From positions 125,230-189,229 of the IMG/VR virus record IMGVR_UViG_3300049009_000874: a stretch of 64,000 nucleotides of DNA; one strand, given 5' to 3'. The DNA is from a virus (Duplodnaviria > Caudoviricetes). Below are positions 5,760 through 64,000 of the stretch, one piece after another; within the stretch, counting starts at the first letter, position 1, and every line of letters begins with the position of its first letter. Position numbers and translations under genes: made by a program. Below the pieces are notes generated by a model, which saw only the letters and a list, made by a program, of their open reading frames with translations, made no database searches and had not been told where the DNA came from.

Positions 5760-6341
5760 ATGGCAGACTCTATGTATCATCAAAGAATAGGACTTACCTT
5801 CAAAAACAGGTATCCAGAGATATTTGATTATTGTTCTAAAATGAAGAACGGCGACGTGAAAATAATGTCTTTCGGCTGTTCGATTGGAACCGAATGCTCA
5901 GATCTAAGGACTTATTTTCCAGATGCCACCATAGTTGGCGTGGACATCAACGAAAGACTCTTGGAGATAGCAAAAAAAAGAAACCCAAACGAAAAAACAA
6001 TCTATGACACGAGTACTGAAGCCCATAGCGGTTTCGACTTCATATTCTGCATGACCGTTCTTTGCAGCTACCCAAAAACACGAAACCTGAAAAACTGCGG
6101 AGAAGTATATCCATTCTCGAAATTCGAGGAAACAGTTCTTTCTCTGGTTGGGAAATTGAATGATGGTGGAAGCATCGTAATATGCAATTCGAACTTCAGA
6201 TTCGCAGATGTCAGTTGTGCTTCTTCATTCGAAGCGATATCTGTTGAAAACAAGAAACCAATCATAAATGTTCCTAAATTCGACAATCAAAACAACATAT
6301 GTGAAGAAGACTATCCGTTCTGTATTTTCAAAAAAAATTAA
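5760..6341 (+). CDS. Class I SAM-dependent methyltransferase
   Basis: IMSFGCSIG, IVGVDIN and FDFIFC motifs; AGGAG RBS. Confidence 0.8.
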   Translation: MADSMYHQRIGLTFKNRYPEIFDYCSKMKNGDVKIMSFGCSIGTECSDLRTYFPDATIVGVDINERLLEIAKKRNPNEKTIYDTSTEAHSGFDFIFCMTVLCSYPKTRNLKNCGEVYPFSKFEETVLSLVGKLNDGGSIVICNSNFRFADVSCASSFEAISVENKKPIINVPKFDNQNNICEEDYPFCIFKKN

Positions 6342-43240: not shown

Positions 43241-44085
43241 GCCGTCTCCTTTTTGAAACCGAAATCGTAAGTTGACCCGTCGACGCTCAAGCCTGACGTC
43301 TTCAATTTTTCGCTCAAACTGGAATCGTCTTTCTGGATTTCGACCATGAGCGACGACATGATACTCTGGTCGATCATGCTGGGGCTCACAAAATTTCCCA
43401 AGTCATAGGATGGCACTGTTACAATTTCTGCCCTTGCCCCGTCCCAGACTATAGTTTTAACATATATCGACACATCTATGCGCAATATGATGGCTGGCAA
43501 TATCATCCCAGAATCGCTATCGCTGTAACCAGTTATCTTCCCGATCAAGCCCTTGTTCCTCGACGCGACTTTCGCGACCTTCATGTTGTATATGCCGTTC
43601 TCCCTCTTTTCGCTGACTCCCTTGTAGTACTCCAAGTCTTCTCCCGAAGCGTTAGCTTTGATCACCTCGTCCCTCATGTAAATGTCGTTGCCTACATGCG
43701 TGAATCCTCCCAGAGTCTTCAGGAACTTGTCGTACATGATGTCCTGCCTAGGATCAGCCCCGATAAACTTGAGACCGTTGACATCCTCGACCTCCGTCAG
43801 TTTTTTGACCGCGCCTAGTATCTTGCCGTACACGGCGGTGCCGCCGCTGCCAGAAGTGCCGGTGAGCGCGTAACTTTTGCCCCGCGTGAAATCTACTGAC
43901 CATATGCCGTCAACCATCTTGCCGCCGACCTTCTTCCCGTGCCAGTGATCGAGACTGACGACGAAATCGTCGAACTTGTACTCGTATCCTTCCTCAGATT
44001 TCTCCAATTCCACGCCCGAACTGTCCACCTGAGACATGCTCGACAGCTCGTCGATCCTCAGCCACATGTCGTAAAATGAAATCAT
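43237..44085 (-). CDS. Tandem array paralogue 3
   Basis: MISFYDMWLRIDEL; ends DGSTYDFGFKKETA. Confidence 0.9.
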   Translation of the reverse strand: MISFYDMWLRIDELSSMSQVDSSGVELEKSEEGYEYKFDDFVVSLDHWHGKKVGGKMVDGIWSVDFTRGKSYALTGTSGSGGTAVYGKILGAVKKLTEVEDVNGLKFIGADPRQDIMYDKFLKTLGGFTHVGNDIYMRDEVIKANASGEDLEYYKGVSEKRENGIYNMKVAKVASRNKGLIGKITGYSDSDSGMILPAIILRIDVSIYVKTIVWDGARAEIVTVPSYDLGNFVSPSMIDQSIMSSLMVEIQKDDSSLSEKLKTSGLSVDGSTYDFGFKKETA

Positions 44086-44942
44086 GCCGTCTCCTTTTTG
44101 AAACCGAAATCGTGAGTGGAACCGTCGACATCCGGCAGATCGGCATCTTTCCAGGCTTGATCACCGGATTTGGCGAAATCCATGAGCGAAGAAAGCAAAA
44201 TGGGATTGATCAGGCTTGGGCTTACGACATTTCGTAATTCATCCGAGGGATTGTACAAGGAAGAATACACGTCTTGACGCAAAAGCCTTGCCCCGTCCCA
44301 GACCATAAACTTAAAATGGAGCGACGCGTCTATGCCAACTATGATCGCAGGCAATACATTGCCATAAGAATCACTGTCGCTATAACCCGTTATCTTCCCG
44401 ATCAAGCCCTTGTTCCTCGACGCGGCTTTGGCGACCTTAAGGTTGTATATTTGATTGTCCCTCTTTTCGCCTGCTCCCTTGTAGTATTCCAAGTCATTTC
44501 CCGATGCGTTAGCCTTGACTATCTCGTCCCTGATATAGACGTTGCCGCCTACCGGCGTGAAGCCGCCCAACGCCTTGAGGAACTTGTCGTACATTATGTC
44601 CTGCCTAGCCTCAGCCCCGGAGAAAGACAGACCGTTGACCTTCTCGACCTCCATCAGCTTCTTGACCGCAGCCAGAACCTTCCCATATACAGCAGTTCCG
44701 TCGCTGCCGGATTTCCCGGTCAAAGTCCATCTCCCGTCTCGCATGAAATCGACTATCCATATGCCGTCCACCATCTTGTCGCCTACCTTCTTGCCGAAAT
44801 CACGATTGAGACTGACGAGGAAATCGTCGAATCTGTACCTGTAATTGTTCCCCGACTTCTGCAGCTCGACCCCCGAACTGTCTATCTGCGACATGCTCGT
44901 GAGCTCGTCGATCCTCAGCCACTCGTTGAATTTCATGTTCAT
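44082..44942 (-). CDS. Tandem array paralogue 2
   Basis: MNMKFNEWLRIDEL; ends DGSTHDFGFKKETA. Confidence 0.9.
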   Translation of the reverse strand: MNMKFNEWLRIDELTSMSQIDSSGVELQKSGNNYRYRFDDFLVSLNRDFGKKVGDKMVDGIWIVDFMRDGRWTLTGKSGSDGTAVYGKVLAAVKKLMEVEKVNGLSFSGAEARQDIMYDKFLKALGGFTPVGGNVYIRDEIVKANASGNDLEYYKGAGEKRDNQIYNLKVAKAASRNKGLIGKITGYSDSDSYGNVLPAIIVGIDASLHFKFMVWDGARLLRQDVYSSLYNPSDELRNVVSPSLINPILLSSLMDFAKSGDQAWKDADLPDVDGSTHDFGFKKETA

Positions 44943-44948
44943 TCCTTT

Positions 44949-45956
44949 TTAATGTAGATCGACAAAAGTCGGAGCCTTTTCTAAACCTAGGTCGTATGTA
45001 GATCCATCGAATCTAGCTGGAAGCATAATGTCGTTGATGGAAGTAGAGGAGTCTTCCGGAGAAATTGACTGTATTGTCCCAGGCAGATTTGGGCGACCAT
45101 ATAATCTACGGCTCGTTGACTTTTTGATTATTTCCATCATGTCTCTCATCGTGCTTGCGTCGATCTTTCTCGGACTCACAATCAAGTCTTTGTAAGTTCC
45201 GGATGGGTCGTATAGATCGTTTACTATGCTTAAGTTTAATTTCATGATTTCTGTAGGACTAAAATATACTATAAGTGTGAATTTTTCATCATCGATGTCC
45301 ACTACTATCGCGGGATGAACTATGTTGGATTTTCCATCTGGATTATAACCTACCACCTTTCCGATAATCGCATTTTTGTTCGATAGCGCGTTTCTGAATG
45401 CAATCTTCATCCTCTTAATTTCCTTGATTCTTTTGTTGTGGACTATCAAATTCAAATCAACGTCATCTGATGTCGACCCATCGACATCAGATGACTTCTC
45501 TCTATCCAGTATTTCTTTTTTCACGAACACAGACTGTCCAACCGGCACGAAGCCGAACGCCTTTGCGAATCTGTCGTACATGATATCCATGTTAGGATGT
45601 GCCCCAGCGAACAACAGACCGCCCACATCCTCGATTTCCGTCAATTTCTTGATCGCAGCCATAAGCTTGCCGTACACTGCCGTGCCGCCGCTGCCAGAAT
45701 CGCCAGTAAGACGGGTGCTCCCATTTTTCTTGAATATTATCTCCCATATTTTTTTGTACAAGATCTTCCCTACCAGTCGAGGACCAACATCTCGCATAAT
45801 CACTTCAAATGGGCGACCGCCTCTGCCTTCGACGTCGGAAGGGTCAGCGAAGAAATAACCATAATTGTTCCCCGACTTCAGCAGCTCGACCCCAGAACTG
45901 TCTATCTGCGACATGCTCGTGAGCTCGTCGATCCTCAGCCACTCTATGAATTTCAT
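44949..45956 (-). CDS. Tandem array paralogue 1
   Basis: MKFIEWLRIDEL; GGGGG RBS; FDGSTYDLG near the end. Confidence 0.9.
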   Translation of the reverse strand: MKFIEWLRIDELTSMSQIDSSGVELLKSGNNYGYFFADPSDVEGRGGRPFEVIMRDVGPRLVGKILYKKIWEIIFKKNGSTRLTGDSGSGGTAVYGKLMAAIKKLTEIEDVGGLLFAGAHPNMDIMYDRFAKAFGFVPVGQSVFVKKEILDREKSSDVDGSTSDDVDLNLIVHNKRIKEIKRMKIAFRNALSNKNAIIGKVVGYNPDGKSNIVHPAIVVDIDDEKFTLIVYFSPTEIMKLNLSIVNDLYDPSGTYKDLIVSPRKIDASTMRDMMEIIKKSTSRRLYGRPNLPGTIQSISPEDSSTSINDIMLPARFDGSTYDLGLEKAPTFVDLH

Positions 45957-46798: not shown

Positions 46799-47593
46799 AT
46801 GGGGCAAAGGACAGCCGTAGTCTGCATCGCCAGGAACGAGGACAGGACCGTAAGGGAATGGATCGACTACCACCTCAAGCTAGGGTTCGACAGGATATTC
46901 ATGTACCAGAACGACTGGACCTGCGAAGTCGAGCACGAACGACTCACTAAATTAAGATTCGACGGACGGGCAGTCCAAGTCCAATCCTACAACCACTGGC
47001 TTGGCTCGGAACACCGCAAAGACTTCGACCACGCGGCGTTCATCGACTGCGACGAGTTCATCGTCCTCCACAAGCACAAGACCATATCCGACTTCCTCTC
47101 CGAGTTCGACCACCCGGTCGGCGTGTCCCCGAACTGGGTCGTGTTCAGCGGCGGCGGGCAGGAATCACCGTACCCGAACCCCGAGAGCCTAATCAAGAGG
47201 TTCACCTTCAGGGGAGAAAAACCCGACAAGCACGTCAAGACCATACTCAACCTGAGAAGCGACGCAGTCATGCATACGCCTCATTCCCCGAACAGACCGA
47301 CCACCGACACCAGGCGCAACCATATCCAAGGTCCGTTCAACCCGGACGGTCCGACCGACGTCATACAGCTGAACCACTACTACTTCAAGTCCAAGCTGGA
47401 GTGGTCCGAACGAGTCGCCAGAGGAAAAATATCAATGCACGGCACACGCCCTGTGGAGGAATGGGACCAAAAATCCCCCAATCTCCACGACGTCCAGGAC
47501 TTTGCAGCCCTAGAATTCCTCTACGGCGACCAGAAGGCAGGATGCACAAGATCCTCTGAGAAAACAGGCGCGGAAACGATACATAAAACATGA
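46799..47593 (+). CDS. GT92/GT2-like glycosyltransferase
   Basis: CIARNE..EWIDYHLKLGFD, FIDCDEFI, HVKTI and QLNHYY.KS. Confidence 0.88.
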   Translation: MGQRTAVVCIARNEDRTVREWIDYHLKLGFDRIFMYQNDWTCEVEHERLTKLRFDGRAVQVQSYNHWLGSEHRKDFDHAAFIDCDEFIVLHKHKTISDFLSEFDHPVGVSPNWVVFSGGGQESPYPNPESLIKRFTFRGEKPDKHVKTILNLRSDAVMHTPHSPNRPTTDTRRNHIQGPFNPDGPTDVIQLNHYYFKSKLEWSERVARGKISMHGTRPVEEWDQKSPNLHDVQDFAALEFLYGDQKAGCTRSSEKTGAETIHKT

Positions 47594-47594
47594 G
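47545..47594. repeat. 50-bp direct repeat, copy A (copy B at 48364-48413), containing a putative promoter and ATG
   Basis: cacaagNtcctctgaNaaaacaggcgcggaaacNataNataaaacatgag, four mismatches. Confidence 0.88.
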
Positions 47595-48378
47595 CGAGAA
47601 AAACAAGAAGGTCCCGGTCATCAGGATATCAACGGAATATGGGGAGATGCTGGTCTTGGACAAAGACACTTACCAGTCCGATTCGCTCAAGAACTCCGGG
47701 AAAGCCTGCTCCTGGGGAGAGGTGGATTTGCTCAGGGACATCGTTCGTGAGATAGACAAACCAGTATTCTTCGACGTCGGGGCGAACCTCGGATCGTTCA
47801 CCATGGGTCTTGCGAAAACCATCAAGGAAAATGGCGGTCTCATCTACGCATTCGAGCCACAGAGGGTAGTGTTCAACTGCCTTTGCGGGAGCGTGATCAT
47901 GAACGGGTACGACAACATATTCGTCGACCACAACGCCATGGGCGACGGCAAACAGGAATTCATAGAGACACCCCGGTTCGACTACTCCGAGACATGCAGC
48001 TTCGGGTCCGTAGAGTTCGGCGACAGGCAGAACGAGAGACTCCACCAGGAAAGGAGGGAAGACGGTCAAAAAGACTTCGTCAAGATCGTAACCCTCGACT
48101 CGTTCATCGACAAGGTGGAAAAGGTCGACTTGATAAAGATAGATGTCGAGGGCATGGAGGAAAGCGTCTTGGATGGAGCCAAAGCCATGATAGGGAAACA
48201 CAAGCCAGTCCTGTTCATAGAGCACCTGAAGAGCGACAAGTCGAAAATGAGGAAAACCATAGAGGACCTCGGCTACGACGACATAATAGAAGTCGGGTTA
48301 AACTTCCTCTGCAGGCAGTCGAACCGGGTCGCCACGACAAACCCCCGTCTCCCCGACCGCAACCACAAGCTCCTCTGA
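47590..48378 (+). CDS. FkbM-family methyltransferase
   Basis: FDVGANLG, YAFEPQ and LIKIDVEGME..VL.GA. Confidence 0.92.
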   Translation: MSEKNKKVPVIRISTEYGEMLVLDKDTYQSDSLKNSGKACSWGEVDLLRDIVREIDKPVFFDVGANLGSFTMGLAKTIKENGGLIYAFEPQRVVFNCLCGSVIMNGYDNIFVDHNAMGDGKQEFIETPRFDYSETCSFGSVEFGDRQNERLHQERREDGQKDFVKIVTLDSFIDKVEKVDLIKIDVEGMEESVLDGAKAMIGKHKPVLFIEHLKSDKSKMRKTIEDLGYDDIIEVGLNFLCRQSNRVATTNPRLPDRNHKLL

Positions 48379-48408
48379 AAAAACAGGCGCGGAAACCATA
48401 GATAAAAC

Positions 48409-49191
48409 ATGAGATTCAAGAACTGGCTTGCGAACGAAGCTTGGGCTCCGCAAACTTCGCAGAAAAACCGACTTTCTGGCTACCTGTCGAACCCGAAGCA
48501 CTCCGTCCTGGACGTCTGGCACCATTTCACCTCTTGGAACAGGGCGCAGGACATAACCCATGAACTTGGCTTGAGCCTGCAAGACCTGCGGAACGATGAC
48601 CTGATGTACGACAACGCCGAAAAGATCGACTCCTACATGGACGAACACCCGGAACTGTGGGACCGACTGCACAGCTACGTCACGGCAAGGGAACCAAGCG
48701 AAGCCCCGACCCTAACGCACGTCAGCCCGGCGAAGCAGCTTCCCAGGAACACCTGGCTGGTCCACTTCTCCGACCATGCCCCGGACATAAGCTCCGGCGG
48801 GTTCAGGCTCGGCGAGCCAGACGTCACGAGACTCGGTATCACATGGTCTCGGAAACCAACCATGCCGGGATACAACTTCGCCTTCGTCGCCGGGTCCAGA
48901 TATTCGAGAGATGCCGCCGAGTCCAGCAAGTACGGCTCGGACGCCGTCATGTTCATGGCTCCGGCGCACCTCGTCCATCACCACGGCGACGAGGAGGATC
49001 AGGCTATATTCGACGGCGAGAGCGTCAGACCGAAGGACATCGTGCTCCTCACGAAAGACGGGGAGAACTCCTGGACGGTGAACAGCAAAAAGAGGGGCGT
49101 CCGCGACCCGTTCAGATCCGACGACTTCGAAAAGGCTGAAGCGTGGGTTATGGACAACTGGGAACAATACAAGAAAATCATCATGTCCTGA
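48409..49191 (+). CDS. Tagged protein, possible ADP-ribosyltransferase-like fold
   Basis: MRFKNWLANEA; WLVHFS....I..GGF...GYNFAF...KYG...EEDQ pattern. Confidence 0.5.
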   Translation: MRFKNWLANEAWAPQTSQKNRLSGYLSNPKHSVLDVWHHFTSWNRAQDITHELGLSLQDLRNDDLMYDNAEKIDSYMDEHPELWDRLHSYVTAREPSEAPTLTHVSPAKQLPRNTWLVHFSDHAPDISSGGFRLGEPDVTRLGITWSRKPTMPGYNFAFVAGSRYSRDAAESSKYGSDAVMFMAPAHLVHHHGDEEDQAIFDGESVRPKDIVLLTKDGENSWTVNSKKRGVRDPFRSDDFEKAEAWVMDNWEQYKKIIMS

Positions 49192-52029: not shown

Positions 52030-53189
52030 GCGCCCCCCGAGTTCAGACCCGACAGCACGCGGTCGACCCCGTCGTCCCTCGACTCCTTCCCGGCGTGGTG
52101 GTCGGGCGTGATCCTGTACCTCGTGTCGTACGGCTCCGACATGTCCCTCGCGTCGATGCCGTGGAACTTCTCCGAGCCGGCGCGGACCTTGTGGGCGGGC
52201 ACCGGCGTCGTGCTCCCGTACAGCGGTCGGTAGTGGTATATGACCTTGCCCACCGCGTTCCTCAGGGCTGCCGCTATCTCAGCCTGGATCAGCAGCGACT
52301 TGCCGCGCAGGAACTCCTCCGAAAGCTTCGATGGCTTCAGCTCAGGAGCCACGTAAGAGCCTAGCTGGTGCATCGCCCTGCCGCCCGGGAGATGCTCCCC
52401 GGCGAACCTCGCGTCGTTGGTCAGCCTCACCTTGCCCGTCATGATGTACTGGGAAACCAGCTCGTAGACCATCTCGTTCAGCGACGATATCCCCCTCTTC
52501 GAAATCGCCATCCGCGACCTCTCGTCCCTACCATCCACCTTCCACCTGTGCGAGCTCTCCCCGGACTTGTGCGGGAAGTACCGCGACGCCACCTGCATCA
52601 CGTGGAACCGGTTCCCCTCCGGCTCCTCGCCGTGGCTCTCCTTGTGCGCCGCGAATATGTCGTACAGCACCCTCATGATGCCATCCTTGTGGACCGCGTT
52701 CTCCTCCCACGTGCCCGAAGGCTTGTCGAACAGAGCGTGACCCACGTTGTGGAACAGTATCCACTTGCTCACGCCGTCGCCGGAAGACCTGTTCTTCACG
52801 AAGGTTATGTGACCGTCGCGAGACAGACCGTGCTCCCTCATGTAGCCCTCGACCGCCTCCTCGTACTTGCCGAAACGCGATTCCGAAGGGTCGAGCTCCA
52901 GGAATATGATGTTCCACTTGTAGCCACCGCCCTCCGAGCCTACGTCGAAACCCTCGGGCGTCCGACCTAGGGTCTTCCCGACCGACGAGAAATAACCGGG
53001 ATCCCTTATTTCCCTTCGGTCACGCCTGTTGAACGGCGAGTAGTAGAACGGCTTGCCCTTCTTGGGGTCGGAGTCGCGGACCCCCATCGAAGCCTCGTAG
53101 TCCGCCGGATCGTCGCTGCGGAAACTGTGACCGCCGTGCGAGAGCTGCTCCTGCAAGCCAAGCCAATCCCTGAAAGATTCCGTATTCAT
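52026..53189 (-). CDS. Tagged hypothetical protein with degenerate zincin motif
   Basis: MNTESFRDWLGLQE; WILFHNVGHALF...NEMVYEL. Confidence 0.6.
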   Translation of the reverse strand: MNTESFRDWLGLQEQLSHGGHSFRSDDPADYEASMGVRDSDPKKGKPFYYSPFNRRDRREIRDPGYFSSVGKTLGRTPEGFDVGSEGGGYKWNIIFLELDPSESRFGKYEEAVEGYMREHGLSRDGHITFVKNRSSGDGVSKWILFHNVGHALFDKPSGTWEENAVHKDGIMRVLYDIFAAHKESHGEEPEGNRFHVMQVASRYFPHKSGESSHRWKVDGRDERSRMAISKRGISSLNEMVYELVSQYIMTGKVRLTNDARFAGEHLPGGRAMHQLGSYVAPELKPSKLSEEFLRGKSLLIQAEIAAALRNAVGKVIYHYRPLYGSTTPVPAHKVRAGSEKFHGIDARDMSEPYDTRYRITPDHHAGKESRDDGVDRVLSGLNSGGA

Positions 53190-53227
53190 GAAAAACCCCT
53201 ATGATGTTGATGCCCGAAATTCAGCTG

Positions 53228-55264
53228 TCAGACCTCTCCCCGGAGGTGGCGTTTCAGCCATTCTTGGCGGGCGACTAGCAGATAGTCCTTGATCTCTTGC
53301 GTCCTTGCGTTGTCGATGTCATGCTGCTCCACTTTCGCGCCTTTCTCGCACAGGTATTTTATGAGGTCGAGATCGTTGCTGTTGCTCGTCACGTTGAATA
53401 TGGTGCTATCGGCAATCTTCCCAGGGGCTTTCCCCTTGGGCAGTTTCAGCACATCGCCTAGCTTGCCGGCGACTTCATCCCCGAGTAGGTATTTCACGAC
53501 ATCGATATGCCCGCTCACTGCCGCGACCGACACGGCGCCATCACCTATCCTCCCGCCTTTCTCCACCAGGTGCCTCACGATGTCGAGACGACCCGAGCGC
53601 GCCGCGGAGCCTATGGCGTAATTGCCTATCTTCTCGTTCCCGCCTTTCTCCACCAGGTATTCCACGACATCGAGATGCCCATTTCCCGCCGCCGTGGAAA
53701 TAACAGAATCGCCTATGCGCCCACGCTCCCCGACCAGGTATTTCACGATGTCGAGACGACCCATCTTCGCCGCGCCCTCGACAGCGTTGCCTATAGCCCT
53801 CTGCCCTCCTTGCTCGACCAGGTATTTCACGATATCGAAATGCCCCGACGTCGCTGCGAGCTCCACTCCATCGCCCATGTCCGCGCCTTTGCCCATCAGG
53901 TATTTCACGATTTCAATATTTCCATTTCTTATCGAAGTATCGAAGCCATCACCTATTTCCTCGCCCTTATCGACAAGTTCTTTCACCATTTCAAGTTCAT
54001 CGAGGTTGATCGCCTTGGTCACCTTTGAATGTTTGGTGTTGTTCCACACCTCGCCCTTTTGCTTGGGATTCAGCAACGCGTATTCCTGCTTCGACAAATC
54101 ATTTGACGTGCTGTCCCTTAGCACCCTGTTGTGCAGGTAGTAGTCTTTCAGATCCCTCTTGGCGGTTATCTTCGCGAGCTGGTGGTCGTTCACCTTCAGA
54201 CCGGTCTTCGCGTACTGCGTCATGAGCGAGGCGAAATTCTCGTAGACGTAATCGAACTGCTCGTCCGACAGGGCATGACCCCTGCCGACGTACTTTGACT
54301 TCTCGTCGGGCGACAGCGACCTGAACCAGCCAAGGTCTCCGTTGTTCTTCCCAAGCTTCGCCTGCTCCGCGTCCTCCTCCGGCGATTTCGGTATGTTCCT
54401 GAATATGCCCGCGTCGATGCCTCTCTCCCGCAAGTACCTGAAGTAAAGCTCCGGGTCCGAATCTATCCTCTTCTTCTCCGTCGGCGAAAAAGGGTCCTGC
54501 ATGGTTTTCGCAGTATGGTTGGCTCGGTCGGTCAGCTCGATCCTGTCCCGCGTCGCGTCGACCACGACTATAGCCAGGTCGTCGGTCCTCGTGCTGTCGT
54601 AAACGAAGTGGAAGGTCGACACCTTGTCGTCCCTGTAGGACTGGAACATGGTGTTAGCCGGCTGCGAGATGCAGAAACTCTCGCCTTTCCCCAGTATGAT
54701 GCATTGGTTGGCAGAGTTCGCCTTGTAGACCTTTATCTTGCCGTCCGCCGACTGCGCCATCAGCTCCTGGTCGCTCACGTCGCCCTGCACCGGCGCGTTG
54801 CGTACCCTGTCCTCGTACTTCTTGCCGTGGAGGACCTCCGTCCAGCCGAGGTGGCTCGACATGTGGGGGTTGTCCACCTTGAGGTCGTCGCCCACGGACA
54901 GAACCGGCATCTTGCTGTCATTGACCAGCTTCGCGTAGTCGGCGATGTCCGTCCTGAGCGAGTTCAGGTCCTTCACCCTCATGTCCGCGTAGTAGAAAGC
55001 CGCCAGGGCGACTATCTTCCCCTGCAGCTTCGTCGGCACCTTGGCGGGAAGAATCCCCTGGATCTGATTCAGCAACGACTCGTCTCCGCCGAGTATCTCC
55101 CTCGCTATGTCTGCCGCCTTCCTCGCCTCCGCCAGCAGCAGCCATTCCCTGAAGGAATCCATCGTGGGGAGACCGCCCCGGACCGCGTCCCTGCCCTCGC
55201 CCACCTGAACCGAAAACCCGTAAAAGCTCCTCATCGAATTGATTCTCCAGTTTGTTGCCATCAC
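53228..55264 (-). CDS. Ankyrin-repeat protein with N-terminal tag (alternative start 55162)
   Basis: About eight AAxxGHxDIVKYLVEKG repeats; MDSFREWLLLAEA; middle GKGESFCIS...FQSY domain. Confidence 0.88.
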   Translation of the reverse strand: MMATNWRINSMRSFYGFSVQVGEGRDAVRGGLPTMDSFREWLLLAEARKAADIAREILGGDESLLNQIQGILPAKVPTKLQGKIVALAAFYYADMRVKDLNSLRTDIADYAKLVNDSKMPVLSVGDDLKVDNPHMSSHLGWTEVLHGKKYEDRVRNAPVQGDVSDQELMAQSADGKIKVYKANSANQCIILGKGESFCISQPANTMFQSYRDDKVSTFHFVYDSTRTDDLAIVVVDATRDRIELTDRANHTAKTMQDPFSPTEKKRIDSDPELYFRYLRERGIDAGIFRNIPKSPEEDAEQAKLGKNNGDLGWFRSLSPDEKSKYVGRGHALSDEQFDYVYENFASLMTQYAKTGLKVNDHQLAKITAKRDLKDYYLHNRVLRDSTSNDLSKQEYALLNPKQKGEVWNNTKHSKVTKAINLDELEMVKELVDKGEEIGDGFDTSIRNGNIEIVKYLMGKGADMGDGVELAATSGHFDIVKYLVEQGGQRAIGNAVEGAAKMGRLDIVKYLVGERGRIGDSVISTAAGNGHLDVVEYLVEKGGNEKIGNYAIGSAARSGRLDIVRHLVEKGGRIGDGAVSVAAVSGHIDVVKYLLGDEVAGKLGDVLKLPKGKAPGKIADSTIFNVTSNSNDLDLIKYLCEKGAKVEQHDIDNARTQEIKDYLLVARQEWLKRHLRGEV

Positions 55265-55890
55265 ACCCCCAGCGCCTGCGGCACCGCAACCCCCAGCCTC
55301 TCCAGCTGGCGGTCCACCGCGTCCCTGATCTCGTCGGTCGGTATCGTGTGACCACCGCCAAGCAGCACCAGCTCCAGACCGTAATCCACCTCCAGCTCCA
55401 TGCTGTCCGAAGCCGGCACGCTGAGATCCCTCCTCCCGTGCACCACTATCGTGTCCCTAGGCAACGACGAGGGGTCGGCTCCGAAAACCTTCCAAGCCGG
55501 CGCGCCGAGCACGAACTTCGCCCCCGGATAACGACCAGCCACCTCCATGGCGACGGCGCCGCCCTGGCTCGTGCCCACCACCACGTCCGGCACGAACGAG
55601 CCCATCTCGCCGTCGTGCTTCCTGACGTTCGCAGCCAGGTGGTCCCCGGCGACCCTCTCTATACCCGCGTGGACACCGACTGGCAGGTGCCGCTTAACCC
55701 TGCCGAGGTACGCCGCGAAACGGCTCGTCGTCGTCCCAACCTGCTTCACCTCGTAACCCATCGCAGCCAGCTCCCGCGGTCCGACGCCGCTGCTACCCAT
55801 TCCCGTTATCCAAAGCACGCGCGGGCTCCTGCCCTCCCCCTCAAGGGAAGACTCGAGCCACGCGCGGAATCCGGACATCGTTTCAGCCAT
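55261..55890 (-). CDS. Alpha/beta-hydrolase with N-terminal tag
   Basis: VVGTSQGG nucleophile elbow, VHGRRD..VP and GGH; MSGFRAWLE. Confidence 0.85.
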   Translation of the reverse strand: MAETMSGFRAWLESSLEGEGRSPRVLWITGMGSSGVGPRELAAMGYEVKQVGTTTSRFAAYLGRVKRHLPVGVHAGIERVAGDHLAANVRKHDGEMGSFVPDVVVGTSQGGAVAMEVAGRYPGAKFVLGAPAWKVFGADPSSLPRDTIVVHGRRDLSVPASDSMELEVDYGLELVLLGGGHTIPTDEIRDAVDRQLERLGVAVPQALGV

Positions 55891-55965
55891 GAATGTAGGT
55901 ATGATTCCCTCTTCCGAAAAAACGGGAACTATGTTAACATCTCCCGCGAACCACGGAGAAGACGA

Positions 55966-56709
55966 ATGAGATACTTCCAAGGCATACCCGAAGACTTCCT
56001 CAGAAAATCTTTCGAATACGACCCGGAAAGCCCGTCTGGTCTCGTAAAATTGCGTACATTCCAAGAACAGAGAGATAAAGCCAACCATGTCTGTAAACCA
56101 AAGGGACAAACCAGGTTCTTAGCGCATATCCACATCGACGGTAAAAACCACCAGAAATCGTTCCCATTCGGCAAAAACGGCAAATCGGAACTACAAGCCG
56201 AATCGGAAGCACACGCATTCATCGAGAAAACCAAAAACGAAAACCCAGAATCCATCAAGACAGTAGGATATAAAAGAAAAGACGGATACTGGGACAATAT
56301 AGTCATGTACAACGGCAAAAGAATTAACGTCTTAGTCCACCGACTCGTCTTCTTCCTCTGTAACAAGAAGATCGACATCGAAAAAAAGAAGATCGACCAC
56401 ATAGACAACAACCGCTCCAACAACAGAAAAGAAAACCTCCAGATAGCAACATCCTCCCAGAACAGCCACAACGCGAAACTTTCGAAAAGGAACAATACAG
56501 GCACAAAGGGGCTTTCTGACTACGTAGAGAGACACTATTTCTACGCACAAGTTATGAACAAAAGGAAATCACACTACAAACTATTCCCCTACGGCAAAAC
56601 CCCGACCGAAGAACACAAGGAAAAAATCAGAGCTACTGCCGTCATCTGGCTCAGGGAAACCAGGCAACGTCTCCACGGAGAATTCGCGAACCACGGAGAT
56701 ACAGAATGA
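55966..56709 (+). CDS. HNH/AP2-like endonuclease, copy 1
   Basis: Start reassigned to MRYFQG. VHRLVF, IDHIDNNRSNNRKENL and C-terminal LHGEFANHG. Confidence 0.9.
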   Translation: MRYFQGIPEDFLRKSFEYDPESPSGLVKLRTFQEQRDKANHVCKPKGQTRFLAHIHIDGKNHQKSFPFGKNGKSELQAESEAHAFIEKTKNENPESIKTVGYKRKDGYWDNIVMYNGKRINVLVHRLVFFLCNKKIDIEKKKIDHIDNNRSNNRKENLQIATSSQNSHNAKLSKRNNTGTKGLSDYVERHYFYAQVMNKRKSHYKLFPYGKTPTEEHKEKIRATAVIWLRETRQRLHGEFANHGDTE

Positions 56710-57443
56710 GATACTTCAAAGGTATACCAGAGGACTTCCTCAGAGAGTCGTTCCAATACGACCCGGACAGCCAGTCTGGTCTCGTAAAATTGCGTTCACG
56801 CCTAGAAATTACAGAGAATGCAAGCCACATCTCTAAACAAAAAACCAGTCTCCAAGCGCGGATCACGATCGACGGGAAAAAATACCGCAAACATTTCTCT
56901 TTCGGAGCAAATGGCAAATCGGAACGACAAGCCGAATCGGAAGCACACGCATTCATCGAGAAAACCAAAAAAGAAAACCCGGAAACCATCAAGACTGCAG
57001 GCTATATAAACAAATACGGATACTGGCGTAATGGAATCAACTACAAGGGCAAAAGAATAAACTTCGCAGTCCACAGACTTGTCTTCTTCCTCTGCAACGA
57101 AAACGTCGACATCGAAAAAAAGAATATCGACCACAAGGACAACAACCCCTCCAACAACAGAAAAGAAAACCTCCGAACCGGCACAAAAGAACAAAACCAA
57201 CACAACAAGAAACTGTCGAAGAACAACACGTCAGGCACAAAGGGGCTTCATGACGACGTAAATTGGCATCGTTTCCACGCGCAGGTCAGAATCAACCGAA
57301 AAAATCACCAGAAATACTTCCCCTACGGCGAAAACCCAACCGAAGAACACAAGGAAAAAATCAGAGCAATAGCCATCATCTGGCTCAGGGAAACAAGGGA
57401 AAGACTCCACGGAGACTTTACGAACCACGGAGAAGACGAATGA
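56706..57443 (+). CDS. HNH/AP2-like endonuclease, copy 2
   Basis: Same architecture; ATGA overlap. Confidence 0.9.
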   Translation: MRYFKGIPEDFLRESFQYDPDSQSGLVKLRSRLEITENASHISKQKTSLQARITIDGKKYRKHFSFGANGKSERQAESEAHAFIEKTKKENPETIKTAGYINKYGYWRNGINYKGKRINFAVHRLVFFLCNENVDIEKKNIDHKDNNPSNNRKENLRTGTKEQNQHNKKLSKNNTSGTKGLHDDVNWHRFHAQVRINRKNHQKYFPYGENPTEEHKEKIRAIAIIWLRETRERLHGDFTNHGEDE

Positions 57444-58183
57444 GATACTTCAAAGGCGTACCGGAATACTTCCTCAGAGAAACATTCGAATACGACCCAA
57501 ACAGCCCCTCAGGTCTACTACGACTTCGCACACACTCAGAACGGAGAGAGAAAGCCAACCATGTTCGTAAACAAAAAGGAGTAAATTCCCTTCGAGCGCA
57601 GATCATGATCGACGGAAAAAAATACCAGAAATGTTTCCCCTTCGGCATGAACGGCAAATCGGAACGACAAGCCGAATCGGAAGCACATGCCTTCATCGAG
57701 AACACACAAAACGAAAACCTACAAACCATCAAGACGGCAGGACATAAAAGCACAGGCGGATACTGGGAGGCGAAAATCACGTACAACGGCAAAAGAATTA
57801 ACTTCTCAGTCCACAGACTCGTCTTCTTCTTCCACAACAATGACATAGACATAGAAGGAATGGAAATCGATCACATAGACAACAACCGCTCCAACAACAA
57901 AAAAGAAAACCTCCGAGACGGCACAAGGTCACAAAACCAACACAACAGTAAAATCAACAAGAACAACACGTCAGGCACAAAGGGGCTTCATGACGACGTA
58001 AATTGGCACCGTTTCCACGCGCAGGTCAAGTGCAATGGAAAACTCCACCAGAAATACTTCCCCTACGGAAAAACCCCGACCAAAAAACACAAAGCCAAAA
58101 TCAAAGCCATCGCCGTCAAGTGGCTCAGGAAGACAAGGGAAAAACTCCACGGAGACTTTTTCAACCACGGAGAAGACGAATGA
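57440..58183 (+). CDS. HNH/AP2-like endonuclease, copy 3
   Basis: Same architecture; ATGA overlap. Confidence 0.9.
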   Translation: MRYFKGVPEYFLRETFEYDPNSPSGLLRLRTHSERREKANHVRKQKGVNSLRAQIMIDGKKYQKCFPFGMNGKSERQAESEAHAFIENTQNENLQTIKTAGHKSTGGYWEAKITYNGKRINFSVHRLVFFFHNNDIDIEGMEIDHIDNNRSNNKKENLRDGTRSQNQHNSKINKNNTSGTKGLHDDVNWHRFHAQVKCNGKLHQKYFPYGKTPTKKHKAKIKAIAVKWLRKTREKLHGDFFNHGEDE

Positions 58184-58923
58184 GATACTTCAAAGGCGTA
58201 CCCGAGGACTTCCTCAGAAAGTCGTTCGAATACGACCCGGACAGCCCCTCGTGTCTCGTGCGACTTCGCTCATACTCAGAACGGAAAGATAATGCCAACC
58301 ACGTTCGTAAACGAAAAGGAGTAAACGGTTTTCGAGCGCAGATCGTGATCGACGGTAAATGCCACCAAAAATACTTCTCCTTCGGCGCAAACGGCAAATC
58401 GGAGCGACAAGCCGAATCGGAAGCACATGCCTTCATCGAGAAAACCAAAAAAGAAAACCCGGAAACCGTCAAGACGGCAGGACGTAAAGACAAACGCGGA
58501 TACTGGACGTCGGCAATAGCGTACAACGGCAAAATCATCAAATTGCTCGTCCACCGACTCGTCTTCTTCCTCTGCAACGAAAACGTCTACATCGAAGGAA
58601 TGGAGATCGACCACATAGACAACAACCCGTCCAACAACAGAAAAGAAAACCTCCGAGACGGCACAAAAGAACAAAACCAACACAACACGAAACTGTCGAA
58701 GAGTAACAAGTCAGGAACAAAGGGGTTTCGTGACAACGTAAAAACCAAAACGTTTCAGGCGAGCGTAAGGTGCAACGGAAAACAACACCATAAATACTTC
58801 CCCTACGGCAAAACCCCGACCGAAGAACACAAGGAAAAAATCAGAGCCATTGCCATCATTTGGCTCAGGGAAACAAGGCAACGTCTCCACGGAGAATTCG
58901 CGAACCACGGAGATACAGAATGA
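58180..58923 (+). CDS. HNH/AP2-like endonuclease, copy 4
   Basis: Same architecture; ATGA overlap. Confidence 0.9.
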   Translation: MRYFKGVPEDFLRKSFEYDPDSPSCLVRLRSYSERKDNANHVRKRKGVNGFRAQIVIDGKCHQKYFSFGANGKSERQAESEAHAFIEKTKKENPETVKTAGRKDKRGYWTSAIAYNGKIIKLLVHRLVFFLCNENVYIEGMEIDHIDNNPSNNRKENLRDGTKEQNQHNTKLSKSNKSGTKGFRDNVKTKTFQASVRCNGKQHHKYFPYGKTPTEEHKEKIRAIAIIWLRETRQRLHGEFANHGDTE

Positions 58924-59663
58924 GATACTTCCAGAATATACCCGAGGACTTCCTCAGAGATGCGTTCCAATACGACCCGGACAGCCCGTCTGGTCTCGTA
59001 AGATTGCGCTCACAATCAGAAAATAGAGATAAAGCCAGCCACGTCCGTAAACGAAAGGGAGTAAACGGTTTTCACGCGCAGATCATGATCGAAGGGAAAC
59101 GCCACCAGAAATACTTCCCATTCGGTAGGAACGGCAAATCGGAGCGACAAGCCGAATCGGAAGCGCACGCATTCATCGAGAAAACAAAAACGGAAAATCT
59201 TCAAACCATCAAGACGGCAGGATATAAAACCAATCGAGGATACTGGAGGAATTGCATCAGGTACAAGGGCAAGCCCATTAACTTCCTTGTCCACAGACTC
59301 GTATTCTTCCTCTGCAACGAAAACGTCGACATCGAAAAAAAGACGATCGACCACGATGACAACAACCCGTCCAACAACAGAAAAGAAAACCTCCAGATAG
59401 CAACATCCTCCCAGAACAGCCACAACGCGAAACTGTCGAAGAGAAACAAGTTGGGCACAAAGGGGCTTTTCGACAACGTAAAGAGACACTATTTCCAAGC
59501 GCAGGTCATGATCGACGGGAAACGCCACCAGAAAACCTTCCCCTACGGCAAAACCCCGACCAAAAAGCACAAAGCCAAAATCAGAGCCATTGCCATCATC
59601 TGGCTCAGGGAAACCAGACAACGTCTCCACGGAGACTTTACGAACCACGGAGACGACGAATGA
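58920..59663 (+). CDS. HNH/AP2-like endonuclease, copy 5
   Basis: Same architecture; ATGA overlap. Confidence 0.9.
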   Translation: MRYFQNIPEDFLRDAFQYDPDSPSGLVRLRSQSENRDKASHVRKRKGVNGFHAQIMIEGKRHQKYFPFGRNGKSERQAESEAHAFIEKTKTENLQTIKTAGYKTNRGYWRNCIRYKGKPINFLVHRLVFFLCNENVDIEKKTIDHDDNNPSNNRKENLQIATSSQNSHNAKLSKRNKLGTKGLFDNVKRHYFQAQVMIDGKRHQKTFPYGKTPTKKHKAKIRAIAIIWLRETRQRLHGDFTNHGDDE

Positions 59664-60394
59664 GATACTTCCAAGGTATACCAGAAAGCTTCCTCAGAAA
59701 ATCTTTCGAATACGACCCGGAAAGCCCGTCTGGTCTCGTAAAATTGCGTACATTCCAAGAACAGAGAGATAAAGCCAGCCACGTCCATAAACGAAAAGGA
59801 CAAAACGGTTTTCAAGCGCAGATCATGATCGACGGAAAAAACCATCGGAAATCGTTCCCCTTCGGCAGGAACGGCAAATCGGAGCAACAAGCCGAATCGG
59901 AAGCACACGCCTTCATCGAGAAAATACAAAACGAAAACCCGGAAATTACCAAGACGGCAGGATGTAAAAGAAAAGACGGATACTGGATAGATGCAATCAC
60001 GTGCAACGGCAAAAAAATTTACTTCCTTGTCCACCGACTCGTCTTCTTTTTCTGCAACAAGAAGATCGACATCGAAAAAAAGAAGATCGACCACAAGGAC
60101 AACAACCGCTCCAACAACAGAAAAGAAAACCTCCGAACCGGCACAACCTCTCAAAATGCCTGCAACGCGAAACTGTCGAAAAGGAACACCTCAGGCACAA
60201 AGGGGCTTTTCGACAACGTAAAGAGACACCGTTTCCAAGCGCAGGTCAGAATCAACCGAAAAAACCACCAGAAAGTCTTCCACTACGGCAAAACCCCGAC
60301 CAAAAAGCACAAAGCCAAAATCAGAGCCATCGCCGAAGCATGGCTCAGGGAAACAAGGCAACGACTCCACAAAGACTTTTTCAACCACGGATAA
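59660..60394 (+). CDS. HNH/AP2-like endonuclease, copy 6
   Basis: Same architecture; ends FFNHG. Confidence 0.9.
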   Translation: MRYFQGIPESFLRKSFEYDPESPSGLVKLRTFQEQRDKASHVHKRKGQNGFQAQIMIDGKNHRKSFPFGRNGKSEQQAESEAHAFIEKIQNENPEITKTAGCKRKDGYWIDAITCNGKKIYFLVHRLVFFFCNKKIDIEKKKIDHKDNNRSNNRKENLRTGTTSQNACNAKLSKRNTSGTKGLFDNVKRHRFQAQVRINRKNHQKVFHYGKTPTKKHKAKIRAIAEAWLRETRQRLHKDFFNHG

Positions 60395-60455
60395 GAGACG
60401 AAGATACGCGCAAGACAAATCGGACGCCCAGCCCCCTACATACACAAGGGGGCAA

Positions 60456-60995
60456 ATGACGACTTTCACAGAATACGCCAGAAGACGGGACGGACAATCC
60501 GGAAACCAAACACCAGACGGCAACGACATGATGTCCGAGGAATGGCTCGGTAAGGTGTGGGGCTTCCTCGCCCGCATAGCCACCACCGCATCCGCGGCTG
60601 CGGGAGCCGTATCCCTCGGGCAGGTCGCCGGCGTCGACATCGACCAGATGGACCAGATGGGCATAGGCGTAGAGCAGATCGCCGATTTCATCAAGAGGGC
60701 GAAACTCACCGCCGAACAGATCAAGATCCTCGACTCCCTCAGGGAGGAGATGACGCGCCGACTCCGGGACAAGTGCCACGCCGACCTCGATAGGTTCAGG
60801 GGCTCCGCCGACTGGCTCAAGGAGAAACGGGACAGCGCCGAAGCCTGCGACAAATACTGCAAGCTCAAGAAGGACCCAAAAGCCTGCGGCAAATCCGGCA
60901 AGATTGTTTACGACTTCGGCAGGTACAAGAGAGTCGCCAGGAACCCCTTCCCCAAGAAATCCAGAACCACAAACCACATGGAGCGCCAGGCATGA
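60456..60995 (+). CDS. Tagged hypothetical protein
   Basis: MTTFTEY...MMSEEW; hydrophobic segment; CTACATA and GGGGG upstream. Confidence 0.65.
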   Translation: MTTFTEYARRRDGQSGNQTPDGNDMMSEEWLGKVWGFLARIATTASAAAGAVSLGQVAGVDIDQMDQMGIGVEQIADFIKRAKLTAEQIKILDSLREEMTRRLRDKCHADLDRFRGSADWLKEKRDSAEACDKYCKLKKDPKACGKSGKIVYDFGRYKRVARNPFPKKSRTTNHMERQA

Positions 60996-61573
60996 GAAAC
61001 ATATACATCGACCTCGGATCCTACGACGGAGACACCCTCAGGCTTTTCACGGAAAAGTACCCGGACGCGGCGTCCTACAAGGCGTACTGCTTCGAGCCGA
61101 ACAAGATGTTCGACCACCACTACAAGAACCTAGCCTGCGAACACGTCAAGGCTGCAGCCTGGACCCGCGACGGCAACATAAGGTTCTACGTCTCCGAGAA
61201 ACAAACCAGAAGAAGCCACCTTGGCAACACCGTCATGCCGATGTTCGCGAGCGTACTTGCGAAAAACGACAAAACAGGGCTTCCCTTGATCCCCTGCGTC
61301 GACTTCAGCTCCTGGCTGAGGAAAAACGTCACACGGGAAGATTTCGTCGTATGCAAGATGGACATAGAGGGAGCCGAGTACGAAGTCCTCGAGAAAATCA
61401 TCGGGGACGGAAACCTCGACCTCATAAAGAAACTCTACGTCGAATGGCACAACACGAGACTCGAGGGCTTCGACAACTCGAGGCACGACAAACTCGTCGA
61501 GACACTCGCCGCCCACGGGTGCTACGACCCGAAGAAGATATTGTGCGGCTGCAAAAAGGTGCTAGATGTCTAG
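60992..61573 (+). CDS. FkbM-family methyltransferase
   Basis: YIDLGSYDG, YCFEPN, KMDIEGAEYEVL and VEWH. Confidence 0.88.
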   Translation: MRNIYIDLGSYDGDTLRLFTEKYPDAASYKAYCFEPNKMFDHHYKNLACEHVKAAAWTRDGNIRFYVSEKQTRRSHLGNTVMPMFASVLAKNDKTGLPLIPCVDFSSWLRKNVTREDFVVCKMDIEGAEYEVLEKIIGDGNLDLIKKLYVEWHNTRLEGFDNSRHDKLVETLAAHGCYDPKKILCGCKKVLDV

Positions 61574-62100
61574 ACCGGCTTCCGGAACGTCACGATGAAA
61601 CCCGTGTTGTCGTGGCAGTGACCCTTCGCGCACCTCATCCCGTCCTCGGAGTAGTACTTGACCAGAGACCCGGTCTTAGCCTTCCTCTCCCTGACCCCGA
61701 CGACCTCCAGACCAGCGCGGGCAGCCAGCCTCCTCACCCCCGTCACCGTGTACCTGAGGCTGTCCAGCTCGACCTCGTTGTGCAGCGGGTAGACGAAAGG
61801 GAAACTCACCACCGCCGTACCCCCGGGTCTAAGCATGTCGCAGATGTTCCCCATCGCCACCGTCGGCACCAGCAGGTACTCGAAAACCTCCAGGCAGAAC
61901 GCCATGTCGCACTTCTCCGCGTGCTCGTTCCTGACGTCTAGGTCGTACCCCGGCATGTCCATCACCACATACCTCCCGACCTCCCACGTCGCCGTCCTGC
62001 CCTTCACGGGCTTCTGACCGCCGCCGACGTCGAACACGGTGCCGCACCCAACGCGGACCGTCCTGAGGTAAGACTCCAGCTGATCCCTGTAAAAGCTCAT
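61570..62100 (-). CDS. Class I SAM-dependent methyltransferase
   Basis: VFDVGGG, CLEVFEY, LRPGG and PF.YPLH...D..RYT. Start reassigned to MSFYRD. Confidence 0.85.
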   Translation of the reverse strand: MSFYRDQLESYLRTVRVGCGTVFDVGGGQKPVKGRTATWEVGRYVVMDMPGYDLDVRNEHAEKCDMAFCLEVFEYLLVPTVAMGNICDMLRPGGTAVVSFPFVYPLHNEVELDSLRYTVTGVRRLAARAGLEVVGVRERKAKTGSLVKYYSEDGMRCAKGHCHDNTGFIVTFRKPV

Positions 62101-62726
62101 GACTTCAACTCCTTCAGAAAAGATTCCAGGTTCCCCCACTCGCCCTCCCTGTCGATCTCCCATGAGTGACCGAACATGTGGAACACGGGGTCGACCATGC
62201 CCCCCGCCACCCGGACCATCGACCTGGCGTACTCCAGCCACGACAGACCCCCGTACTCAGCCCTCCCGATCCCGACGTGCACGGTCGTGCTCCGGTAATA
62301 CGGGTCGTCGCCACCGTCGAGGCTGCCAACGCCCACACCCCTGGCGCTGCTGTAGCCGGCGAGCCTCACCATCTCCTTGTACTCCAAATCGAACCTCCCC
62401 CTCGGATAACAGAACGTGTCCACGACCTGCCCGGTCTCGTCCTGCCAGAACTTCCTCGACTCGAATATCTCGAAGCGAGCCTCCGAACTGGACAGAACAT
62501 CCTTCTTCAGGTGCGAGTGGCTGTAGGAGTGCGACCCGACGGTGAACGTCTTCGCGATCTCCTTGCACTCCTTCAAACTGAGGAACTCCTTCACGCCCTT
62601 CAGGTTCTTGCTTTTCTTCAAGGCGCACGGCCAGTAGAAGACCGTCGGCACCTCGTGCCTAGCCATCAACTCCGCGACCCTCAAATCCTGGACCGCCGCG
62701 TCATCCCAAGTCGCTATTAACCTCAC
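62097..62726 (-). CDS. Polysaccharide deacetylase (NodB/CE4)
   Basis: TWDD, GSHSYSH, FCYPRG and HMFGHSWE. Confidence 0.88.
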   Translation of the reverse strand: MRLIATWDDAAVQDLRVAELMARHEVPTVFYWPCALKKSKNLKGVKEFLSLKECKEIAKTFTVGSHSYSHSHLKKDVLSSSEARFEIFESRKFWQDETGQVVDTFCYPRGRFDLEYKEMVRLAGYSSARGVGVGSLDGGDDPYYRSTTVHVGIGRAEYGGLSWLEYARSMVRVAGGMVDPVFHMFGHSWEIDREGEWGNLESFLKELKS

Positions 62727-62806
62727 TGTGAACCTCCAGACACATGCGTGAACCTTTCGGTATGTATGTCATCCCAAAGCCTTTTACCTCGAAACCAAAA
62801 CCACAA

Positions 62807-63009
62807 CGTGAACGACCGCGTGAACCCCCAGCCACGTGAAACCATACGTGAACGACCGCGTGAACCCCCAGCCACGTGAAGCCATACGTGAAGCCATACG
62901 TGAAGCCAAACGTGAACGACCGCGTGAAGCCATACGTGAAGCAGTACGTGAACGACCGCGTGAAGCCGCCTCCCCGACGTGAAGCAGTACGTGAACGACC
63001 GCGTGAAGC
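62807..63009 (+). repeat. Sixteen co-oriented CGTGAA-core repeats, mostly 12-bp period
   Basis: Units cgtgaacgaccg, cgtgaagccata, cgtgaagcagta and cgtgaacccccagcca. Confidence 0.92.
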
Positions 63010-63294
63010 AAACAGCCTTCACACGGAGGGCGACCCGCTGGACTTGTGAAGCCGACCAGCATGGCTTGTGAAGCCCACGCCGCGTCGGGCGCGTGAAGCC
63101 GACCGCGAACCTGTGAAGCCCAGGACGGCGCATAACGGCGCATAACGGCGTATAAACGACTCATAACCCATAGACCCGTGAAGCCAATCCCATCGCCGTG
63201 GACTTGTGATACCGACTGGCGGGGAACGACCGAGGCTTTTTAACACTATAAGGGAACAACATGACACGACACGAGCCACGGCTGGCGGAAACCG

Positions 63295-63500
63295 CGTGAA
63301 AGCGGACGGGAAGCCACATGTTCGTGCGTACACTTAACCTTTCCGTGCGATTCAGCCATCCACAAGGACGTGAAAGCGGACGAGAAGCCACATGCCAGCC
63401 CTCGCAACCGAACTTTCCGGGCGATTCAGCCATCCAGAAGGACCCGAAAGTGGACGGGAAGCCACATGTTCGTGCGTACACTTAACCTTTCCGCGCGATT
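63295..63500 (+). repeat. Three degenerate ~74-bp tandem units
   Basis: gaaagYggacgRgaagccacatg...ctttccgNgcgatt at about 63295, 63369 and 63443. Confidence 0.85.
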
Positions 63501-63704
63501 TGTTTCGACGTCGCCGCGGGGGTGTCGTGTGAAAAGCGGCAAGGGGGGGGTCTAGCCGCACCCCTTTCCCGCGCCTCCCTTCCCCCAGCCGACGCAAAGG
63601 ATTCGGCTCCCGCGGACCTTTCACGCCCGTAAAAAGCCAATTCGGAGACCATTCCAGCCGAGTGAAAGGTCCGCGACGTGAACCCCATCGAGGCAAATCA
63701 AAGA

Positions 63705-63875
63705 CAAACCAGGTCTTTAATTGACGTGAAGAGACGATATCCAAATAAAATACAAACCAGGTCTTGAATTGATGTGAAGACCCAGACGACAACACGCAAA
63801 CCGGGTCTCTTGTCGACGTGAAGCCCCTCCCGGGAGGACAATTAAGGATAAACCAGGTCTTTGATTGACGTGAAG
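63705..63875 (+). repeat. Four ~27-bp iteron-like direct repeats
   Basis: AAACCAGGTCTTNNATTGACGTGAAG-like units at 63705, 63753, 63797 and 63849. Confidence 0.85.
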
Positions 63876-64000
63876 GTCGGTTTCCTGTCAGAAAAACGAG
63901 TACGGTTTCCCGACGCTGGGCTTGGAGGTGGCGGTTCGGGTGAAGGGGGTGGGGAAAATCCCCCGCCCCGCCTTGGGGGAAATGCCCCCCCCCCCTGTTT

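Follow-up and report, generated by a model that had tools for sequence, protein, structure and literature searches.

A tandem operon of six diversified HNH-AP2 homing-type endonuclease genes in a metagenomic Caudoviricetes contig

The window analysed here is a 64,000-nucleotide stretch of the Caudoviricetes record IMGVR_UViG_3300049009_000874 (positions 125,230 to 189,229) and represents the final 64 kb of a 189,229-bp contig; the completeness of the virus record is estimated at 39%. Six plus-strand open reading frames (ORFs), all encoding HNH endonucleases with AP2-like modules, are arranged head to tail at positions 55966–60394 of the window and form one translationally coupled operon. What is new in this array is that free-standing HNH-AP2 homing-type endonucleases, each with a duplicated AP2 module, are arranged in tandem in one polymorphic operon; literature searches yielded no description of such a tandem HNH-AP2 operon. 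By analogy with characterised phage enzymes, and with a probability that we put at roughly 0.55, the array is interpreted as an operon of variable copy number that encodes homing-type nickases differing in their recognition surfaces; these enzymes would be used against the DNA of competing phages or possibly of the host.

The six genes are located at positions 55966–56709, 56706–57443, 57440–58183, 58180–58923, 58920–59663, and 59660–60394, and encode proteins of 247, 245, 247, 247, 247, and 244 amino acids (paralogues 1–6, respectively). The start-to-start spacing identified by a repeat finder, which detected six copies, is 740 bp, except for 734 bp between copies 2 and 3. The head-to-tail arrangement of six copies of ~740 bp described in the initial annotation is thus borne out by both the ORF coordinates and the repeat spacing. 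Pairwise identity between the copies ranges from 64 to 76% at the protein level and from 76 to 83% at the DNA level, and the longest identical run between any of them is 89 nt. Each internal junction, beginning with that between copies 1 and 2, has the form AACCACGGAGA-N6-ATGA, i.e. a Shine-Dalgarno site followed by an ATGA stop/start overlap, and the GGAG eight bases upstream lies within the codons for the C-terminal NHGD[DT]E of the preceding copy. The last copy terminates early, with NHG followed directly by the stop codon, and the same ending is found on the terminal copy of every relative. The divergent intergenic region upstream of copy 1 (55892–55965, plus strand; 74 bp) contains CGCGAACCACGGAGA-N6-ATGA, matching the internal junctions, and its last ~21 nt are the ribosome-binding-site-bearing sequence of every copy junction. 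Together, the stop/start overlaps, the embedded GGAG, the 21 bases preceding copy 1, and the early stop of the last copy indicate that each repeat unit corresponds precisely to a single gene together with its ribosome site. Many long ORFs (up to 306 amino acids) also run across the array on the opposite strand and in the other frames (55929–60901, both strands). These are regarded as compositional artefacts, because the sense strand of the array is strongly T-poor (~13% T; AT skew, +0.4 to +0.48), which depletes stop codons in all frames.

All six proteins exceed the cut-off of Pfam HNH_3 (PF13392; 24.8 bits), with scores of 41.5, 38.8, 44.4, 43.1, 33.1, and 39.5 bits for copies 1–6, respectively, and all also match PHROG HNH families (phrog_99 with an E value of 2e-29 in the case of copy 1). 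The motif DH.DNN.SNN...NL...QN is kept in every copy, in agreement with the intact active sites that had been noted previously. The catalytic, structural, and metal-binding residues D144, H145, N153, N157, and N166, present in all six copies and nearly invariant over 118 homologues, align with the DH...NN...NL...N motif of I-HmuI, and the family profile built from these homologues matches the I-HmuI sequence (1u3e) at an E value of 2e-13. An AlphaFold model of copy 1, built on the alignment of the 118 homologues (mean pLDDT, 93.5), had I-HmuI 1u3e as its top structural match among 48,161 chains (Z score, 8.2; rmsd, 3.0; 96 residues; model residues 7–171); a Foldseek search with the whole model returned weak matches only. 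Each protein is thus an I-HmuI-type HNH (H-N-N) endonuclease composed of an I-HmuI-like N-terminal sheet, a beta-beta-alpha-metal core, and a C-terminal AP2 module.

The C-terminal module (residues 177–247), in which a three-stranded sheet packs on one helix, resembles the plant AP2 domains of AtERF1, WRINKLED1, and TEM1 with modest Z scores (5.5 for 2gcc, 5.4 for 7wq5, and 4.7 for 7et4), and the tandem-AP2 proteins 6sy0 and 9hqv structurally cover both this module and residues 40–96. Homologues covering residues 120–244 score as true Pfam AP2, and two homologues aligned to residues ~116–245, P0074 and P0054, pass the Pfam AP2 threshold with E values of 1.6e-13 and 1.9e-19, respectively. A search of PDB sequences with a profile of the C-terminal module only gave nothing useful. 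When the profiles of the N- and C-terminal modules were compared with each other by hhalign, they matched with a probability of 97.4% (E value, 1e-11). The second AP2-like module (residues ~40–96) is therefore an internal duplicate inserted in the N-terminal sheet, and the fold match and the profile match both support the two AP2-like modules per copy that were initially recognised. The ~150-residue HNH-AP2 core (residues ~100–245) is present in 16,032 database clusters, and the full-length form with the extra module (a 95-residue N-terminal extension) in a handful of clusters only.

Segments have been exchanged between the copies. In the window, the pairwise homoplasy index (PHI) is 0.38, compared with 0.481 +/- 0.012 in permuted data (0 of 2000 permutations as low; p<0.0005), and in the whole family it deviates with a z value of -4.4, showing that the mosaicism is statistically real. 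The nearest paralogue switches repeatedly along each gene; copy 1, for example, is nearest to copy 6, then to copies 2, 5, and 4. Every segment that the initial annotation had listed as shared was found in the copies named there. Despite this exchange, the protein scaffold and the catalytic residues are under purifying selection. Pairwise dN/dS (nonsynonymous to synonymous divergence) between the window copies is 0.35–0.55 at a dS of ~0.4–0.5, and the family-wide value, obtained by counting substitutions on local trees of 29 distinct sequences, is 0.47 (bootstrap, 0.39–0.57), with 58 codons significantly conserved. With the observed number of differences from the family consensus placed at random, a copy would have a chance of only 0.9–2.1% of staying free of stop codons, which argues that selection maintains the genes.

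The variable residues cluster in the strands of three sheet modules, as had been proposed for the predicted DNA-contacting strands. Variable and conserved columns alternate in six beta strands (residues 50–57, 60–67, 109–115, 118–123, 191–198, and 201–208), and the variable positions occupy equivalent columns of the N- and C-terminal AP2 modules. The conserved face of the strands bears hydrophobic residues that would be expected to pack against the helix. Across the six strands of the three DNA-reading modules, one face is unconstrained and differs in almost every copy, and the most variable residues probably lie on those sheet surfaces with which AP2 domains and I-HmuI read DNA. In a Pfam-guided register, variable positions 195/197 and 206/208 presumably correspond to the base-contacting positions of the AtERF1–DNA structure. 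Among ~24 sequences, the reading blocks at residues 31–49, 50–67, 100–123, and 184–206 are nearly unique per copy (21–24 types), and the other blocks fall into 5–18 shared types. The array was also considered as a target of a diversity-generating retroelement; this was rejected, for this contig only, on the basis that the contig has no RVT_1 match and that variability at A sites does not exceed that at the other bases.

Close homologues (63–76% identity) were found on other metagenome contigs, designated here by L numbers. In those with flanking sequences, the locus is fixed between a hydrolase-like gene bearing the genome's N-terminal tag (located beside an ankyrin gene) and a gene for a protein of 170–179 amino acids. 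The number of copies at this locus is two in L003, three in L004–L008, four in L009 and L012, six in L002, and at least three before a scaffold gap in L010; the last case was examined as a possible broken array and rejected, as the third copy is intact and is followed by the gap. The nearest relatives of window copies 3 and 5 are copies 1 and 2 of L003 (91 and 86.5% nucleotide identity, respectively). All 43 sampled copies are open (13 assemblies; 29 distinct DNA sequences). The tree of the copies is star-like and does not group them by genome, the six window copies requiring six changes, which is the maximum possible. The flanks of the window array are 92–100% identical to those of L009, with a dS of 0.06–0.20, whereas the nearest L009 counterpart of any window copy differs by a dS of 0.30–0.43 and a dN of 0.12–0.20; the synonymous divergence of the copies is three to six times that of the flanking genes. 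These values indicate that the copies long predate the split of the genomes in which they reside and that near-related phages have different sets, although part of the excess divergence of the array may reflect mosaic averaging. Identity to L009 drops from 97–100% to 92–95% in ~750 bp on the left (55097–55846) and ~250 bp on the right (60395–60644) of the array, a gradient that would be expected if older alleles or co-conversion tracts reach into the flanks.

Beyond these contigs, DNA and protein searches of GenBank phages gave no close relative. At a looser threshold, 284 GenBank phage records with 286 matching places were obtained, none covering 80% of the query; 282 of the records contain one place each, usually annotated as a homing endonuclease and located beside polymerase or primase genes. 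Scans of viral contigs with copy 1 and both flanking proteins detected no relatives, and a metagenome scan detected only the L003 contig. More distant full-length homologues (44–53% identity) are single genes in small phage-like contigs, and distant phages that have a homologue of the downstream 179-aa protein carry it without any HNH array. A low G+C content was considered as a sign of recent transfer and was rejected, since the G+C content of the gene is below that of the adjacent sequence wherever the gene occurs, singletons included.

The closest characterised enzyme is I-HmuI (with I-HmuII; Bacillus phages SPO1/SP82, PDB 1u3e), which has the N-terminal beta-sheet and the H-N-N beta-beta-alpha-metal core in common with the array proteins, and its mode of action as a monomeric, site-specific nickase is probably shared by them. 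However, I-HmuI is intron-encoded and single-copy and has a helix-turn-helix C-terminal domain, whereas the array genes are free-standing and tandem and encode an AP2 C-terminal module as well as the second AP2-like module in the N-terminal sheet. The HNH_3 plus AP2 architecture of residues ~100–245 is shared with the free-standing HNN-AP2 genes of Xp10/OP1/Xop411, T5 (heg), and RB16/RB43, for which the T4 mob genes serve as the functional model. Like the array, these genes are intergenic between conserved genes, polycistronic, and present in multiple copies per genome (PMC2248197, PMC2988022); as is typical of a free-standing homing endonuclease gene, the array lies between conserved genes (those for the hydrolase-like and 179-aa proteins). 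Free-standing HNN-AP2 genes are, however, scattered, occupy different positions in different relatives, and are often found truncated, whereas in the array two to six mosaic copies follow one another head to tail at a single constant locus, and none of them was seen to be decayed. In the fused metagenome proteins P0048, P0074, and P0123, two or three HNH_3 units (with AP2 or NUMOD4) are joined in one polypeptide, in contrast to the separate genes of the array, and their existence shows that tandem duplication of the HNH_3 unit recurs. In viral gene accordions and terminal multigene families, such as those arising by amplification of poxvirus K3L, copy number changes by unequal recombination at one locus. 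The array resembles them in that copy number differs between close relatives at a single locus, but its copies are old, diverged (dS ~0.4), and nuclease-encoding, whereas accordion copies are recent and identical.

Free-standing HNH endonucleases are DNA-nicking enzymes that are encoded in polycistronic messages and give rise to marker exclusion (PMC2988022). I-HmuI, MobA, and MobE, also expressed from polycistronic messages, make one-strand nicks at cleavage sites distant from their genes and cause marker exclusion in mixed infections (PMC2988022). By analogy with these three enzymes, each array protein may bind a different long DNA site and nick the DNA there. The array would grow and shrink by unequal homologous recombination between the 740-bp units and would be reshuffled by gene conversion or by exchange between co-infecting phages. 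The nicks would be introduced into foreign DNA, most likely that of co-infecting related phages (resulting in marker exclusion or a homing-like spread of the locus) and possibly that of the host; such nicking would be of advantage to the locus, and perhaps to the phage, and could keep all copies intact. A more elaborate form of this proposal, which we regard as possible though rather doubtful, is a maintained combinatorial repertoire. In it, a long site would be read by three exchangeable modules (the N-terminal AP2 module, the hairpin, and the C-terminal AP2 module), gene conversion between tandem copies and co-infecting phages would yield new target combinations, and old alleles would be kept by frequency-dependent selection in phage–phage conflict, making the array a phage counterpart of a variable immune-type gene family.

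Several observations weigh against interpreting the array as a diversified nickase operon. The variable strand face, which was picked after the variability had been seen, has a pooled omega of 1.00 (S, 78.5; N, 312.5), compared with 0.23 for the opposite face and 0.40 for the remaining protein; this value represents absent constraint, not positive selection, and the variation can be accounted for just as well by neutral drift on a surface free of constraint. The site-wise dN/dS check suggested in the initial annotation did not demonstrate positive selection, as only three codons reached a nominal p<0.05 and none of these would survive correction. Only about three independent cases of block reassortment, in which one reading block is shared and another is very different, were identified. 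The best score of Pfam AP2 (PF00847) on the copies themselves is 13.1 bits (E value, 0.12; residues 186–225), below the cut-off of 33.3, and the fold Z scores of 5–7 are near the background level of the tool. One junction in L002 has lost both the ATG and the GGAG, indicating that some decay does occur. No array-free allele was found among the close relatives, which have two to six copies, and only distant relatives are without the array. Finally, the copy number in the window rests on one short-read assembly. In the recombination-driven specificity library put forward in the initial annotation, the recombination (PHI), the selective maintenance, and the placement of variation on the probable DNA-reading faces have stood, but omega does not exceed 1 and most reading blocks are unique rather than shuffled; the library is plausible yet unproven.

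Among the competing explanations, the one that survives best is a purely selfish array, i.e. a tandem-duplicated homing endonuclease gene whose copies would persist only through their homing, neither benefiting the phage nor dividing targets among themselves in any meaningful way. In favour of this explanation, the family belongs to the homing type, single genes are found in unrelated phage-like contigs, the G+C content of the gene is consistently below that of the adjoining sequence, and no adaptive account is required for an omega of 1.0 on the reading face. We nevertheless consider this explanation unlikely, because the HNN-AP2 genes of other phages are dispersed and often degenerate (PMC2248197), whereas here 43 of 43 sampled copies are intact despite a dS of ~0.4, and because the locus does not change its position and the close relatives all have at least two copies. 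It is less probable still that the proteins are host-takeover nucleases, which would degrade or nick the host chromosome (or plasmids or prophages) and whose variants would widen the range of sequences attacked. All copies are predicted to be intact nucleases in one operon, and the locus lies among putative effector-type genes, but nothing ties the copies to host DNA, and the nearest characterised relatives are site-specific nickases acting on phage genomes (PMC2988022).

A gene-free region with 25 copies of CGTGAA, mostly at 12-bp spacing and all on one strand, is located at positions 62727–64000 of the window. It is conserved in all relatives (L003, 12463–14108; L004, 12790–14475; L009, 11198–12840), and its central part (62.9–63.4 kb) is only 49–62% identical to that of L009. 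The initial annotation had raised a domesticated role of the nucleases at these adjacent repeats (62.7–64.0 kb), e.g. nicking at an origin or packaging site, and the array and the repeat region are indeed neighbours in all relatives, with only one gene between them in the L004-type genomes. This role is nonetheless highly improbable. All relatives retain both the repeat motif and its 12-bp spacing, regardless of how many HNH copies they have and of which kind, whereas the copy number and the reading surfaces of the nucleases differ widely and a conserved site would need conserved contact residues; there is no enrichment of CGTGAA inside the array; and the repeat region is internal to the contigs of the relatives and is thus not a genome terminus. 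Least probable of all is an assembly artefact in which the copy number or the mosaic would stem from mis-assembled strain variants, for although the window array is known from just one contig and strain variants are numerous in metagenomes, the copies differ by ~20% and share only short identical runs, arrays with identical copies are present in at least five independent samples (L004–L008) and in L009–L012, and the period, frame, and junctions are perfectly regular.

The left border of the array is conserved and is formed by a minus-strand gene (55261–55890) for a 209-aa alpha/beta-hydrolase-like protein, which carries the genome's N-terminal tag, has weak hydrolase Pfam matches, and is syntenic in the relatives. 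The conserved right border is a plus-strand gene (60456–60995) whose 179-aa product has no known function; in all relatives, it follows the array in synteny. The 74-bp region between the left-flank gene and copy 1 is almost unchanged across five aligned relatives (L003, L004, L008, L009, and L010). No sigma-70-like promoter was found upstream of copy 1, and the conserved upstream element CTATGTTA does not recur as a genome-wide motif. The upstream intergenic regions of L009 (~5870–5910) and L010 (~655–695) contain a 28-bp tandem duplication of the element GGAAACTATGTTAACATC. In L002, an extra gene for a 359-aa protein without a Pfam match (811–1890) is inserted between the hydrolase-like gene and the first HNH copy, with whose start it has an ATGA overlap.

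The ankyrin gene on the minus strand (53228–55264) is a second hypervariable spot near the array: its repeat part (53100–54600) shows only 38–58% DNA identity to L004 and L003, compared with 92–99% in the adjoining sequence, and is 83–100% identical to that of L009. The window shares with L009, L010, and L012 the genes for an FkbM-type methyltransferase, a second methyltransferase, and a polysaccharide deacetylase (60992–62726). Of these, only the latter two remain in L003, and all three are absent from L004–L008, so that in these genomes the gene for the 171-aa protein directly adjoins the repeat region. Further runs of similar-sized, tightly coupled ORFs are located at 40543–45956 (minus strand; 281–335 amino acids) and 46799–49191 (plus strand; 260–264 amino acids).

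Phage homing-type endonucleases are usually thought to be solitary, scattered, and short-lived. Here, a family of this type is held as an operon, the copy number of which shifts between near-identical phages, and the array adds to the evidence of unusually frequent tandem gene family building in this phage lineage. If the copies have different targets, the array would represent a natural case of nuclease specificity diversifying by duplication and segment exchange, and would provide about two dozen near-related scaffolds, differing in their reading surfaces, for studying or borrowing AP2-guided nickase specificity. It would also show how huge phages may compete with their relatives.

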